A DNA stretch of 64,000 nucleotides from an uncultured Gemmatimonadales bacterium (GCA_963708135.1 OY970192.1:5184001-5248000), one strand, 5' to 3'. Shown: positions 30,974 to 35,568, numbered from the stretch's first letter. Notes: generated from the letters alone by a model not told the origin. Translations and numbers: made by a program.

Positions 30974-32055
30974 GGCGGGCCCGTGCCGGGACCGCCCGGT
31001 GCGATCCGCAGCTCCGGGCCGCCGCGGGCGGCGCGCAGGCGCTCCTCGGCGAGGCGGTCGGCGGCGACGTCGGTGGTGATCCCCTCGGCGGCGGCGGTGT
31101 CCAGGAGGCGGAGCACGGTGTCGTGGATGCCGCGCACCTTCTCGAGCGTGCGCTCGCTCGCCCAGCCGACCACCTCGCGGCAGCCGTTGATGACGCCGCC
31201 CGCGTTGGCGATATAGTCGGGGATGTAGAGGATGCCGCGCTCGGTGAGAGCGCGGCCGTCGCCCGGCCCGAGCAGCTGGTTGTTGGCCGCGCCGGCCACG
31301 ATCTCGACGCGCAGGCGCGGGATGCTCCTCTCGTTCAGCACGCCGCCCAGCGCGCACGGGGCGAAGACGTCGGCGCTCTGGTCCAGGATCTCGCTGGTCG
31401 GCACCACCCGCGCGTCGTGGTCGGCCGCGAGCCGCGCCGCCTTGGCGCCGTCCACATCGCTCACGATCAGCCGGGCGCCCGCCGCGGCGAGCAGCCGGCA
31501 CAGCGCCGTCCCGACGTGGCCGCACCCCTGCACGGCGACGGTGCGGCCGGCGAGGGAGCCGTTTCCCCAACGCCACTGCGCCGCGGCTTCCATCGCGCGG
31601 AACACGCCGAGCGCCGTGTACGGCGAGGGGTCGCCGGAGAGGCCCGGCAGCCCGGCGACGTGCAATGTCGCCTCGCGCACGACCTGCATGTCCGCGGGTC
31701 CCGTTCCCACGTCCTCGCCGGTGATGTAGGTGCCACCCAGCCGCTCGATGAAGCGGCCATGCGCGCGCAGCACCTCGCGCCGGTCGGCGCCCGGCTCCGG
31801 CTCGAGGATCACCGACTTGCCGCCGCCGAGAGGGATATCCGCCGCAGCGTTCTTGTAGGTCATCCCGCGCGCCAGCCGCAGCGCGTCCGTGATGGCGTCC
31901 TCCTCCGTCTCGTAGCGCCAGAAGCGCGTGCCGCCCACCGCCGGCCCGAGCGTCGTCGAGTGGATGGCGATGACGCCACGGTACCCCGCGGCGGGGTCCT
32001 GGCAGAACAGGAGCTGCTCGTGGCCGAACTCGGCGAGGGAATCGAAGAGCGGCAT
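30961..32055 (-). CDS. Leu/Phe/Val dehydrogenase
   Basis: IAIHSTTLGPAVGGTR, GMTYKNA, GGGKSVI, GEDVGT, GDPSPYTA, VQGCGHVG, GAANNQL. Confidence 0.95.
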   Translation of the reverse strand: MPLFDSLAEFGHEQLLFCQDPAAGYRGVIAIHSTTLGPAVGGTRFWRYETEEDAITDALRLARGMTYKNAAADIPLGGGKSVILEPEPGADRREVLRAHGRFIERLGGTYITGEDVGTGPADMQVVREATLHVAGLPGLSGDPSPYTALGVFRAMEAAAQWRWGNGSLAGRTVAVQGCGHVGTALCRLLAAAGARLIVSDVDGAKAARLAADHDARVVPTSEILDQSADVFAPCALGGVLNERSIPRLRVEIVAGAANNQLLGPGDGRALTERGILYIPDYIANAGGVINGCREVVGWASERTLEKVRGIHDTVLRLLDTAAAEGITTDVAADRLAEERLRAARGGPELRIAPGGPGTGPPYGR

Positions 32056-32266
32056 CCGGAGGCCCGAGGGGAAAGAGGATCGTCGCGCATAATGCAACCG
32101 AGGCCGGGGGCGGGACAAGAATCTGCGCCGAACGCATGGCCTGCGCCCCACACGCCAAGTCCCTATATTGGCCTCCCCTCCCGCGCCCGCCGGAGGGTAC
32201 ACCCGCAGGCAGAGCCGACCCGAACCCCCGAGAGCCATGAGACACCCTGTGTCAACCCCCCTGTGT

Positions 32267-33514
32267 TCAAGCAGCCGCCGCGGTGGGTTCCGCGGGGGTG
32301 AAGAAGGGGATAGCCCGTCCGTGTCGGGAGGGGTCGTAGGTGGACCGATTGTGCCAGCAGCGCCACAGCACGCGGACCCAGGCTCGGGCGAGGATTCGGA
32401 TTGCGTGCGGGTGATCGCAGCCGCGGGCACGGGCGCACTTGTAGACGGCGGCGGCCCAGGGGTGGGCATGGCGGGAGTTGTCCGCCCAGGTGGTGAGGGC
32501 TTGTCGCAGGCGCTTGTTGCAGGCGAAGCGGCAGGCGACGCCGCGATGCTTGCCGGAGCTGTGCGTAACGGGGGCGACGCCGGCTTCGGCGGCGAGCTGG
32601 GCGTCGGTGGCGAAGCGGAGCCGGTCGTCGCCGAGCTCGGCGAGAATCTGGGCGGCATTGATGGTGCCGGTGCGGGGGAAGGACTTCAGGATCTCACCGT
32701 CGGGATGCTGCGCGAGGTGAGCGGCGATGAGCCCGTCGAGCTCGCGGATCTGAGCCACGAGAGGGCGGAGGACGGCGACCAGGGAACGGACGAGCTGACC
32801 TTTGGTCTCGCTCTCGAGCTCGGCGGCCTGCCCTGCGGGGGCGGAGCGGAGCCGCTCGAGGAGCTGATCGACCGGCCGGCGGCCGCAGTAGGCAGTGCGC
32901 TTGAGGAATCGTTCGAGGCGCTTGGGCCCGAGGCGGGCGGCGCTCTCCGGGGTGGGGTAGGCGTCCAGGAAATCGAGGGCGATCGGGCTATCGACATCGG
33001 CGAAAATGGCGGCAGCGCCGGCCCAGAAGCTGTCGAGCAGGCTGCGGAGCTGATTGGCGAGCTGGACGCGGGTCGCGACCAGGTCATCGCGGGTGCGAAC
33101 GGCGGCGCGAAGCGCCTTGGTGCGATCGGAGGGGACCCGGAGCGGCCGGAATCGATGCCCATCGGTACGCAGGACGTCGGCGAGGATGTAGGCATCACCG
33201 GGATCGCTCTTCCCCGGAGCCGCGGCGTAGCGGGGCCGGGTGGCCTTGAGGGCGTTCGGGTGGATCGGAACGACCGGGAAGCCGGCCTCGACCAACGTAT
33301 CCACCAGAAGTCCGGACGGCCGCTCGATGGCGATGGGCAGCTGCGCCGGAGAGCTGACGCGACGCAGGCGCCGGATCAGCTCACTCAGCCCACCGGCCGT
33401 GTGAGGGATGGTGAACGCGTCAACGAGGGCGCCGCTGAGATCGAGCACACAGACGTCATGCTTGTCGCTGGCCCAGTCAATTCCGACGAGGTAGCTTGGA
33501 TCCAGTCCTTCCAC
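32267..33514 (-). CDS. IS110-family transposase/recombinase (DEDD RuvC + Tnp)
   Basis: VGIDWA, AIER, KSDPGDAYILAD, AGVAPVTHSSGK, NKRLRQAL; GGAGG RBS before GTG. Confidence 0.96.
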   Translation of the reverse strand: MEGLDPSYLVGIDWASDKHDVCVLDLSGALVDAFTIPHTAGGLSELIRRLRRVSSPAQLPIAIERPSGLLVDTLVEAGFPVVPIHPNALKATRPRYAAAPGKSDPGDAYILADVLRTDGHRFRPLRVPSDRTKALRAAVRTRDDLVATRVQLANQLRSLLDSFWAGAAAIFADVDSPIALDFLDAYPTPESAARLGPKRLERFLKRTAYCGRRPVDQLLERLRSAPAGQAAELESETKGQLVRSLVAVLRPLVAQIRELDGLIAAHLAQHPDGEILKSFPRTGTINAAQILAELGDDRLRFATDAQLAAEAGVAPVTHSSGKHRGVACRFACNKRLRQALTTWADNSRHAHPWAAAVYKCARARGCDHPHAIRILARAWVRVLWRCWHNRSTYDPSRHGRAIPFFTPAEPTAAAA

Positions 33515-33544
33515 GCCTCACCTCCGAGCAGAGATTCACTCCCT

Positions 33545-33765
33545 CGCTCCGGCGTTGGAAGGTCTCACCGATCGCTCACTGAAAGGCGCTCTCGGCTTCA
33601 GGTGCCGTGGCGCTACACCCTGTGGTCGGTTGGGGCCTTCCACGCCGGGCAGGGGAGCGGGTCTCATGCGGGCCGTCGAGCGGCAAGCGACGCTGGCTCT
33701 CCCTACCCGGACGCCGAAGCACTTCTCTTGAGCGGCGCGAATCTACGCCCCGCTGAGGGTAAGGT
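33545..33765 (-). ncRNA. Putative IS110 bridge RNA (target- and donor-binding loops); ends approximate
   Basis: Two stem/internal-loop domains carrying CACAGGGTGT (left donor), CAGTGAG (reverse complement of right donor) and CATGAG (reverse complement of right target). Confidence 0.82.
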
Positions 33766-33771
33766 GCACCA

Positions 33772-35568
33772 GTGAGCGCGCACCCTTCCCGACCCGAAGG
33801 TCCGTCCTCCTTCTCCGCTTCCCTGTCCGGCGTGGAGCCGACGGCGCCCGTGGCCGGCGCGGCGGCCGGCGCGGCGCTGCCGCCGGCGCGCCTCGACCGG
33901 CGCCGCTTCATGGCCTACTTCTCGGCGGCCGGTCTCGGGGGGACGCTCTTCCCCGGCGTGCTGTGGGGGAAGGCGCAGGGACGGGAGGTGACGAAGGAGA
34001 TGGTGAAGGATGCCGAGGCGATCGCGGACCTCGACCTCACCGATGAAGAGATCGAGATGATGCTGGACGGGTTGAACCGGAACCGGCAGGCCTATGACGC
34101 CATCCACGCGGTGACGCTGGCGAACGCGGTGGCGCCGGCGGTCCACTTCGACGTCCGACCCCCCGGGACGGAGGTGGCGACGGGCCCCGACGTGGTGCGG
34201 CCGGCGGCGCCGGGGAAGCTGCGCCGCCCGGCGAACCTCGAGGAGGTGGCGTTCTGGCCGGTGACGCACCTGGCGGAACTGGTGCGGACGAAGCAGGTCA
34301 CCTCGACCGAGCTGACGAAGATGTACCTGGGCCGGCTGAAGAAGCATGGGGACCGGCTCCAGGCCGTGATCACGCTGACGGAGGAGCGGGCGCTCCGGCA
34401 GGCGGCGCAGGCGGACGCGGAGATCGCGAAGGGACGCTACCGCGGCCCGCTGCACGGCATCCCCTGGGGCGGCAAGGACCTGCTGGACGTGAAGGGGTAC
34501 CGGACCACCTACGGCGCCAAGCCCTACGAGAACCAGACGCTCGACGACGACGCCACGGTGGTGCAGCGGCTCGACGCCGCGGGCGCCGTGCTGGTGGCCA
34601 AGCTCACGCTGGGCGCCCTCGCCATGGGCGACGTCTGGTTCGGCGGCAAGACTCGCAACCCCTGGGATCTCGAGCAGGGCTCGAGCGGCTCCTCCGCCGG
34701 GCCGGCGGCGGCCACGGTGGCCGGGCTCGTCGGCTTCAGCATCGGGACGGAGACGCTCGGCTCGATCGTCTCGCCGTCCACGCGCTGCGGCGCCTCGGGG
34801 TTGCGCCCGACCTTCGGCCGGGTGCCGCGCACGGGCGCCATGGCGCTCTCCTGGAGCATGGACAAGATCGGCCCGATCTGCCGCGCCGCCGAGGACTGCG
34901 CGCTGGTGCTGCGCGCGATCAAGGGGCCGGACGGGCAGGACCTCACGGTCTACGACGCGCCGCTCCGCTACGACGCCTCCGTCAAGCCGGCCGACCTGCG
35001 GATCGGCTACTACAAGAGCGCCTTCGAGGGCGACTACCCGAACCGGGAGTTCGACCAGAAGGCGCTGGACGTGCTGCGGGACCTGGGCGCCCGCCTCATC
35101 CCCTTCGAGCTGCCGACGACGTACCCGCTCGGCGCGCTGCGCATCATCCTGAACGCCGAGGCCGCCGCCGCCTTCGACGAGCTCACCCGCAGCGGCCGCG
35201 ATGACCTGCTGGTCAGCCAGGACAAGAACTCGTGGCCGAACTCGTTCCGCACCGCGCGCTTCATCCCGGCGGTCGAGTACCTGGAGGCGAACCGGATCCG
35301 CACGCTCATCATGAAGGAGCTGCACGAGGCGATGGACCCGATCGACGTCTTCGTCTCGCCGTCGTTCCGCGGCAGCACGCTGCTCATGACCAACCTGACG
35401 GGGCAGCCCACGGCCGTGGTGCCCAGCGGCTTCACGGACAAGGGGACGCCCGTCAGCATCTCGTTCGTCGGCAAGCTGTGGGGGGAGGGCGCCGCAGTCG
35501 AGCTGGCGCGGGCCTACCAGGCGGCGACGGACTTCAACACGAGGGTGCCGCCGCTGTTCGCCGTGTGA
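33772..35568 (+). CDS. Tat-exported amidase-signature enzyme; native ATG replaced by IS-derived GTG
   Basis: LDRRRFMAYF twin-arginine motif; GPLHGIPWGGKD, GSSGSSAG, GTETLGSIVSPS. Confidence 0.92.
   Translation: MSAHPSRPEGPSSFSASLSGVEPTAPVAGAAAGAALPPARLDRRRFMAYFSAAGLGGTLFPGVLWGKAQGREVTKEMVKDAEAIADLDLTDEEIEMMLDGLNRNRQAYDAIHAVTLANAVAPAVHFDVRPPGTEVATGPDVVRPAAPGKLRRPANLEEVAFWPVTHLAELVRTKQVTSTELTKMYLGRLKKHGDRLQAVITLTEERALRQAAQADAEIAKGRYRGPLHGIPWGGKDLLDVKGYRTTYGAKPYENQTLDDDATVVQRLDAAGAVLVAKLTLGALAMGDVWFGGKTRNPWDLEQGSSGSSAGPAAATVAGLVGFSIGTETLGSIVSPSTRCGASGLRPTFGRVPRTGAMALSWSMDKIGPICRAAEDCALVLRAIKGPDGQDLTVYDAPLRYDASVKPADLRIGYYKSAFEGDYPNREFDQKALDVLRDLGARLIPFELPTTYPLGALRIILNAEAAAAFDELTRSGRDDLLVSQDKNSWPNSFRTARFIPAVEYLEANRIRTLIMKELHEAMDPIDVFVSPSFRGSTLLMTNLTGQPTAVVPSGFTDKGTPVSISFVGKLWGEGAAVELARAYQAATDFNTRVPPLFAV

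Follow-up and report, generated by a model that had tools for sequence, protein, structure and literature searches.

An IS110-family element with a probable IS621-type bridge RNA directed to start codons, and the possible use of its antisense frame

Why an insertion element should lie directly behind the start codon of a host gene, and what an open reading frame (ORF) is for which runs antisense to its recombinase from one end of the element to the other, are the questions raised by a locus in a 64,000-nucleotide stretch of DNA from an uncultured Gemmatimonadales bacterium (GCA_963708135.1 OY970192.1:5184001-5248000; the whole stretch is called the window, and positions are counted from its first letter). 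By comparison with its relatives, the locus (Table 1) is very probably an intact element of the IS110 family, whose left end encodes a bridge RNA of the IS621 type; on the same grounds, this RNA is in itself an unremarkable representative of the type which IS621 defines. A preliminary description of this DNA had read the RNA as programmed for ATGAG start codons; the element-spanning antisense frame and the design of its overlapping stop and start codons were not mentioned there. We give an even chance to the proposal that the element belongs to a widespread clade of "stealth cistrons", in which the bridge RNA would be tuned to [A/G]TGA-G, the signature of a start codon and of a 4-nt stop/start overlap, and in which the whole element would form one frame, opened by the host and closed by TGA at a Shine-Dalgarno-like (SD-like) motif and a start codon carried by the element, so that the gene or operon would stay translated and escape polarity.

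The boundaries of the element and its CT core are fixed by four copies in the 5.45-Mb genome (G+C content 72%), since these are 100% identical and their flanks differ. CT stands on both sides of the copy in the window (33775-33776 and 32240-32241) and at both junctions of the other three. The layout of a long left end (260 nt) and a short right end (25 nt) is given as that of the IS110 group in parts of Durrant 2024 (PMC11208160), where bridge RNAs are also predicted in 85.7% of IS110 elements. The 10-mer CACAGGGTGT, with which the element ends, occurs eight times in the genome, twice in each copy and nowhere else. The recombinase (P0001) matched the Pfam families DEDD_Tnp_IS110 (PF01548, 2.4e-37, residues 10-163) and Transposase_20 (PF02371, 2e-17, residues 274-358), as well as the NCBIfam entry NF033542, "IS110 family RNA-guided transposase" (204.7 bits, cut-off 140). 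At least 7981 of 8000 scored candidates were related to it at E <= 1e-30, the best 120 being 76-100% identical. A profile of 29 relatives matched the transposases of IS621 (8wt6) at E = 4e-15 and of ISCro4 (PDB 9t56) at E = 1.3e-14; the DEDD and serine positions in the IS621 profile alignment are D13, E64, D104, D107 and S320, and all five are invariant in the 29 relatives.

Table 1. Positions of the element, its parts and the adjoining host gene in the window
Feature	Position	Strand	Basis
Antisense open frame, 512 codons, from host ATG (32237-32239) to TGA (33773-33775)	32237..33775	+	ORF list, homologues
IS110-family insertion element, 1533 bp	32242..33774	-	four copies in the genome, 100% identical, flanks differ
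Right end, 25 nt; contains TTGACA (32250-32255) and the left-donor sequence CACAGGGTGT (32242-32251)	32242..32266	-	
Recombinase gene, 415 aa (P0001), DEDD RuvC-like and Tnp domains	32267..33514	-	Pfam, NCBIfam, family profile
Left end, 260 nt, non-coding on the minus strand, probably encoding the bridge RNA	33515..33774	-	
Donor-binding loop domain: outer stem, second stem CCGAC/ATCGG, inner hairpin	33551..33646	-	
Putative handshake dinucleotide CG, donor loop, for target positions 7 and 6	33573..33574	-	
Right donor guide CAGTG + AG	33575..33581	-	reverse complement is the start of the left end
Left donor guide CACAGGGTGT	33615..33624	-	identity to 32242-32251
Target-binding loop domain: outer stem, bulged A, 4-bp second stem, inner hairpin (33672-33684)	33645..33710	-	
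Putative handshake dinucleotide AC, target loop, for donor positions 7 and 6 (T, G)	33661..33662	-	
Right target guide GCATG + AG, complement of CT-CATGC	33663..33669	-	homologue flanks
Left target guide AGCGTCG + CT	33686..33694	-	same columns compared with left flanks in homologues
Candidate 5' stem-loop, upstream of both binding loops	33731..33754	-	single-sequence fold
Conserved motif: CACCTT on the element strand (-10-like), AAGGTG on the host-gene strand (SD-like), 5 nt before GTG	33761..33766		
Host gene, amidase family, 598 aa, now starting at the element-borne GTG (33772-33774)	33772..35568	+	PF01425 1.4e-75

A scan of species-representative genomes gave 79 homologous loci from many phyla, the record labels naming Gemmatimonadota, Rokubacteria/Methylomirabilota, Acidobacteriota, Actinomycetota, Alphaproteobacteria and others. 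Sixty-seven of these loci were tabulated together with the window, twelve with partial or distant matches being left out. The upstream segment was at least 200 nt long in 64 of the 68 cases, and L031 and L056 failed to align; after a filter for at least 260 nt and the removal of duplicates there were 56 upstream regions, and 52 distinct RNA regions were aligned.

The two-domain RNA is kept in the homologous left ends. The consensus structure of the 52 regions contains 37 pairs, 25 of them with compensatory changes, which are found in 15 of 18 pairs of the target-loop domain (helices 1-3) and in 10 of 17 pairs of the donor-loop domain (helices 4, 5 and 7). Paired cells amount to 95.4%, compared with 79.5% in column shuffles and 36-46% when the partners are slid, and the observed value was reached by none of 500 shuffles on any of five measures. 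Both outer stems stand as they had been proposed from the single sequence: CCGGGTAGGG (33701-33710) pairs with CCCTGCCCGG (33645-33654) in domain 1, and GGCGTGGAAGG (33636-33646) with CCTTCCAACGCC (33551-33562) in domain 2, each on the minus strand. In parts of the structural work on IS621 (PMC11208158) each domain is described as an outer stem, a bulged A and a short second stem, followed by an inner hairpin with one guide on its 5' side and another on its 3' side, and the architecture of the left-end RNA agrees with this description in both domains.

The 11-mer GGCGTGGAAGG is present a second time at 33507-33517, where it overlaps the recombinase start codon GTG (33512-33514). Since it is duplicated, CCTTCCAACGCC could pair with either copy, which could couple the folding of the bridge RNA with the translation of the recombinase. 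Close relatives, as judged by eye, retain [A/G]TGGAAGG at this start codon.

For an examination of the guides, their columns in the window were applied to every homologue; the element ends were then located and the guides compared with the DNA. The left target guide matched the left flank at 3.96 of 7 positions (2.89 of 7 after shuffling, n = 46), and the right target guide matched the right flank at 4.88 of 6 (3.35 of 6; n = 33 distinct of 41). The corresponding values were 9.0 of 10 (8.1 of 10; n = 19 distinct of 49) for the left donor guide with the right end, and 5.17 of 6 (3.92 of 6; n = 12 distinct of 51) for the right donor guide with the left end, these two tests being biased, since the ends were placed by the best match to the element's own donor guides; the ends do also lie in an invariant context, namely ..TTGACACAGG..GT/CT and CT/CA......ACC (the slash marks the junction). 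For all four guides the observed match was reached in none of 5000 shuffled pairings.

Variants point the same way. The variable dinucleotide of the left donor guide (GT, AT, AA, CT or GA) covaries with the right end, with values of 0.89 and 1.0 compared with 0.40 and 0.54 in cross-pairings. The right donor variants CACTG, CATTG, CATCA, CACTA and CATTA gave a covariation of 1.0 at all three variable positions, and the unusual right target guides CTGCTAG, CTGGTTG, CTCCTCC and CTTGTGC match their own unusual flanks. The loop segments named in the preliminary description are those which covary with donor ends and target flanks in the homologues, and its individual identities hold: the left donor guide repeats the final 10 bases of the element exactly, the right donor guide is the reverse complement of the core CT and the first five bases of the left end, and CATGAG (33663-33668) is complementary to core and right flank, CTCATG. 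From these comparisons the right guides would effectively consist of the core and 5 nt, and the left target guide would be effective mainly over the 2-5 nt adjoining the core, its agreement falling off past some 3-5 nt. In parts of the published work (PMC11208160, PMC11208158) the 5' guides are given as 8-9 nt long and the 3' guides as 4-7 nt, and the lengths found here fit this scheme.

Two further observations concern the target loop. A 7-mer on its 5' side, AGAGCCA, matches the right flank of the copy in the window and none of the other three, and was dismissed as a coincidence. Two contigs of one metagenome-assembled genome (L021 and L030) carry different relatives in the same flanking sequence; their left ends are 343 and 342 nt long and their target guides differ, those of L030 alone fitting the flanks well (5/7 and 7/8). 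This may reflect a repeated target or a change of guide after insertion.

The dinucleotides which follow the right guides, AC and CG, had been taken as handshake bases, and they do complement positions 7 and 6 of the other partner, the DNAs being ..GT/CT in the donor and ..CG/CT in the target. Among 42 distinct homologues, the donor-loop dinucleotide can pair with the target at position 7 in 42 and at position 6 in 26 (cognate donor: 0 and 1), and the target-loop dinucleotide with the donor at position 7 in 42 and at position 6 in 40 (cognate target: 0 and 9); these positions are mostly invariant, so that the counts stand for consistency rather than covariation, apart from L018, which is one compensatory case, and a CA/TG subgroup. 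In IS621, handshake pairing of this non-cognate kind was shown to promote the exchange of strands (PMC11208158, section 11).

On this basis the bridge RNA would act as follows. In the target loop, AGCGTCG-CT would correspond to the top strand of the left target and GCATG-AG would be complementary to the right target, CT-CATGC; in the donor loop, CACAGGGTGT would represent the terminus of the right end and CAGTG-AG would be complementary to CT and the start of the left end. AC and CG, placed 3' of the right guides, could pair with the incoming non-cognate strand, while the recombinase, with its DEDD residues and catalytic serine, would exchange strands at the CT core. Transcription may start from a promoter formed at the circle junction, its two boxes being TTGACA of the right end and, 18 nt further downstream in the circle, [T/C]ACC[T/C]T of the left end. 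The hexamer TTGACA, which is conserved, is likely to be the -35 element of this promoter; in 45 of 49 right ends of homologues the final 16 bases start with GGTTGA.

Several points weigh against the assignment as a bridge-RNA element. P0001 is remote from the experimentally tested enzymes; when it was used as a single query against solved structures no match was obtained, and only the family profile reached IS621. A scan of positions 31000-35000 against Rfam gave no match at E <= 1, and the single-sequence fold of the left end is only slightly better than shuffles (z = -2.47; 4 of 200 shuffles were as good). Because the fold is only mildly better and Rfam gave no match, the case is built on the comparison of homologues; these share descent, and the shuffle tests thus overstate independence. 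The left target half had already been noted to match only partly, and the guide indeed agrees with the left flank of the copy in the window only in CGCT; counted by hand, it matches the four left flanks in the genome at 2, 1, 3 and 4 of 7 positions, and three better genomic 12-mer matches (GCGTCGCTCATG) coincide with none of the four copies. Therefore either the contribution of the left half is small in this case, or selection determines which of the insertions are retained. Insertion in which just one half of the bridge RNA finds its match is described in part of a recent preprint, and this may or may not apply to the present element. The -10-like hexamer is CACCTT here instead of TAnnnT, and only 20 of 45 left ends fit TAnnnT. 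Finally, contigs from RNA libraries of two studies lie for nearly their whole length on the region of the bridge RNA (176 nt, 33517-33690; 194 nt, 33483-33670), with 3 and 8 differences, and come from close relatives; contigs of this type cannot show transcription, strand or ends, and they are a lead only.

The effective target in the clade is approximately N-C-G-CT-CA-Y-G-N, which on the opposite strand reads [A/G]TG-AG-C, i.e., a start codon and the beginning of codon 2; insertion therefore occurs directly behind the start codon of host genes, with the recombinase in antisense orientation. All four targets in the genome read ..ATG-AG/C.. on the opposite strand, and the genes reconstructed from the host ATG at the four sites have 598, 337, 219 and 20 codons. 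The empty site of the amidase gene, which is the one in the window, is reconstructed as ATG AGC GCG... A second copy (L003:3037-4050, in the same genome) sits at a 4-nt stop/start overlap directly upstream of a full-length gene of the RnfD/NqrB family (337 aa, PF03116, 3.5e-105; positions 2-296 of the 296 of the profile are covered, from residue 11); the upstream gene ends in the TGA of ATGAG, and AAGGAGG stands 8 nt ahead of the ATG of the host gene. Interruption of such an operon would carry a high cost. The copy L002 (C1:630480-632025) interrupts a gene on the element strand, in the frame ..GTG CTC ATG GGC...

Sites were classified by 80 open codons downstream together with third-position G+C in the order high, mid, low, a procedure which is crude and uniform; an earlier classifier based on third-position G+C was dropped, since it confused the strands where third positions coincide. 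The reading of the RNA as programmed for ATGAG start codons is supported by three of the four copies, which lie at the starts of long ORFs, and by 19 of 31 distinct insertion sites which are start-like, ten of them with an upstream gene ending in TGA; none of the 31 is internal to a gene. For all CATGAG motifs of this genome, the background is 10.4% start-like and 2.6% overlap-like, which gives P = 9e-12 for starts and P = 4e-9 for overlaps, with the background taken from one genome only. The upstream gene ends in the TGA of [A/G]TGAG at 16 of 36 sites, and at 19 of 40 sites an SD-like 4-mer precedes the start codon of the host by 3-17 nt, compared with 4/40 and 4/40 in displaced windows and 7/40 on the other strand.

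A replicate was obtained from metagenome contigs, which were scanned after the ideas had been formed, with automated tests and with anchors taken from the window coordinates. Of 80 loci, 76 were tabulated; 21 without one of the ends, one duplicate and one equal to a locus of the genome set were removed, which left 53. Nineteen new sites had both flanks: 11 are start-like, nine of these being overlaps, and no site lies inside a gene. At 30 of 53 sites the SD-like motif is present ahead of the host start (controls: 1/53, 12/53 and 6/53); among the 53, the host gene starts with ATG 35 times and with GTG 14 times.

What, then, becomes of a host gene whose start codon has been separated from its second codon? 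On the plus strand, an ORF (32168..33775) runs across the whole element and includes the host ATG at 32237; the TGA which closes the frame overlaps the GTG which is the present start of the amidase gene. As this restart codon reads into codon 2 of the host gene, the sequence of the host protein is preserved (Met-Ser.. from GTG AGC..). An SD-like motif facing outward, [G/A][A/G]GGT, lies 3-17 nt before [A/G]TG in 40 of 45 distinct left ends.

The frame is maintained in elements of varying length. In 36 of 46 genome-derived elements the inserted length is 2 mod 3, and in 32 of the 46 frame 0 stays open as far as its last codon or the one before it, compared with 4-20 stops in the other two frames. 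In the metagenome replicate, a length of 2 mod 3 is found in 50 of 53 elements, each of which keeps the frame open to its end; lengths of the left end not met in the first set include 208, 235, 244, 247 and 310 nt. Of 36 elements, 31 have a left end whose length is 1 mod 3, with 14 distinct lengths of 241-421 nt, and the length is 0 mod 3 in all of the other five; for 14 of 19 distinct lengths being 1 mod 3, P = 4e-4. The right-end tails of 10, 22, 25, 28 and 37 nt are likewise all 1 mod 3. Within the left end, the aligned antisense frame is free of stops in 31 of 49 cases, and in 12 more the only stop is at the codon before TGA; the other antisense frames are stop-free in 9/49 and 5/49, and the sense frames in 1/49, 0/49 and 12/49. 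Over the recombinase gene, by comparison, the frame needs only the absence of TTA, CTA and TCA to be open, because it is codon-aligned with the recombinase; none of these codons is present in 32 of 36 distinct intact elements. The non-coding ends provide stronger evidence for maintenance of the frame than does openness over the recombinase gene.

The reading which accounts best for these data, and which extends that of the bridge RNA, is a translational relay, and we consider its chances to be somewhat better than even. The Shine-Dalgarno motif and the start codon of the host would remain at the right-end junction; the host start codon would open the frame antisense to the recombinase through the entire element; the frame would stop at the TGA overlapping the element-borne [A/G]TG, which would be preceded by the element-borne SD-like motif; and the restart codon would lead directly into host codon 2, leaving the host protein unchanged. 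The element would then be a translated and translationally coupled cistron which keeps the host gene or operon expressed, and its cover by ribosomes would prevent polarity on downstream genes. In favour of such a relay are the open frame in both sets, the length classes of the two ends, the outward motif before the restart codon, and the frequency of stop/start overlaps among the sites, i.e., 10/31 compared with a background of 2.6%, and 9/19 in the replicate. There are also points on the other side. The relay is impossible for one of the four copies (L002), which interrupts a gene on the element strand; and the SD-like motif coincides with the -10-like box, so that its conservation has a second possible cause. 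Furthermore, openness over the recombinase gene is weak evidence in a genome with 72% G+C, in which 1014 of 1679 long ORFs (60%) are also without TTA, CTA and TCA; with an expectation calibrated on host genes, about 36 such codons should be present in the 36 elements, and 9 were seen.

A functional protein, encoded by the antisense frame and made with the expression signals of the host, as has been proposed for the hed frame of IS900, would draw on the same conservation of the frame, and we regard it as improbable. The product of 512 aa belongs to no Pfam family; about half of its length is dictated by the recombinase codons opposite, and another sixth by the bridge RNA. In-frame insertions of up to 160 nt are tolerated in the left end, which fits maintenance of a frame better than a folded domain, and a protein of this kind would not need the conserved stop/start overlap nor the outward SD-like motif. 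Still less probable is a by-product, in which only the bridge RNA is functional, the frame is a shadow of high G+C content and the ATG motifs are merely concentrated at gene starts: the 60% baseline of this genome and the fact that ATG is part of the guide-encoded motif would suit it, but codon bias cannot explain the length classes or the frame-specific absence of stops in the non-coding ends, three unrelated IS110-family genes of the same genome carry 1, 3 and 1 of the codons TTA, CTA and TCA, and the sites are start-like six times more often than the motif itself.

Those three genes, which also encode IS110-family recombinases, lie within 28 kb of each other (C1:810864-811343, 815211-815690 and 838489-838968; L089-L091). 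Among the relatives of the element, the four with unusual right target guides listed above (L051, L060, L061 and L078) have no start codon in these guides, and the antisense frame is lost in two (L060 and L078) of the three whose ends are known.

In all sequencing runs other than the probable source run the shares were small. From the probable source sample (run X1), contigs exit the element at window positions 32237 and 33778 into other flanks, one of them reading ..ACGAGGAACGA ahead of ATG; as they diverge at both ends of the element, more insertion sites exist in that community. No empty site and no junction between right end and left end, as would be expected in a circle, was seen among the contigs of this run and of three other runs matched to the region. 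Five contig joints with sides of 20-25 letters at 85% likeness were taken as relatives or repeats.

As to the meaning of these results, the element adds one readable bridge-RNA orthologue of high G+C content, with right guides of 7 nt and clear handshake bases, and the many natural variants of its guides should be useful for comparing guide rules and for insertion with half-matched targets. The start-codon design, if true, matters more than the bridge RNA itself. It suggests that RNA-guided targeting is used to choose sites where the element is translated through and does little harm, and an inexpensive reporter assay could test directly what element-spanning antisense frames do in IS110-family elements. 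For annotators it is a warning that a gene lying downstream of an element of this type probably remains expressed, from the start codon borne by the element. If the stealth-cistron reading is true, the hed frame of IS900, long unexplained, would gain a function.

Among known systems, IS621 of E. coli is reportedly targeted to repetitive extragenic palindromes, whereas the targets here are start codons and an element-spanning antisense frame is present. Features shared with IS621 (PMC11208160, PMC11208158) are a DEDD and Tnp recombinase with catalytic serine, a long left and a short right end with a CT core, two internal-loop domains in the order target and donor, handshake dinucleotides 3' of the right guides, and a putative -35 box at the terminus of the right end. 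The differences are that the proteins are similar at the profile level only, that the right guides are 7 nt long here, including the core, and that CA follows the core in both donor and target. The transposase of ISCro4 is the second solved IS110-family recombinase which the family profile matched.

IS900 of M. avium subsp. paratuberculosis, another member of the IS110 family, is said to insert between ribosome-binding site and start codon, and the title of a publication by Doran in 1997 reportedly states that it targets translation initiation signals. Insertion in one orientation at translation initiation signals of the host was also found by the analysis of sites described here, and both elements have an ORF opposite the transposase which spans the element. 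In parts of the literature on IS900 (PMC8141618), hed is described as an ORF complementary to the transposase which spans the whole element and has no ribosome-binding site or start codon of its own. A bridge RNA linked to hed was not found in the literature searched, and searches for start-codon or coupling designs in IS110 elements gave no such description; translational coupling was mentioned only for IS66 (PMC3469429), and neither "start codon" nor "antisense" occurs in the text of the Durrant paper (PMC11208160). The design of the junction, with an element-long frame opened by the host, a stop/start overlap, and an element-borne SD-like motif and start codon, was thus not found in print. 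The hed frame of IS900 is the nearest precedent, and the junction differs: the family described here inserts after ATG-AG and uses the start codon of the host itself, and its frame, which is likened to hed by description only, ends in a stop/start overlap with an SD-like motif of its own.

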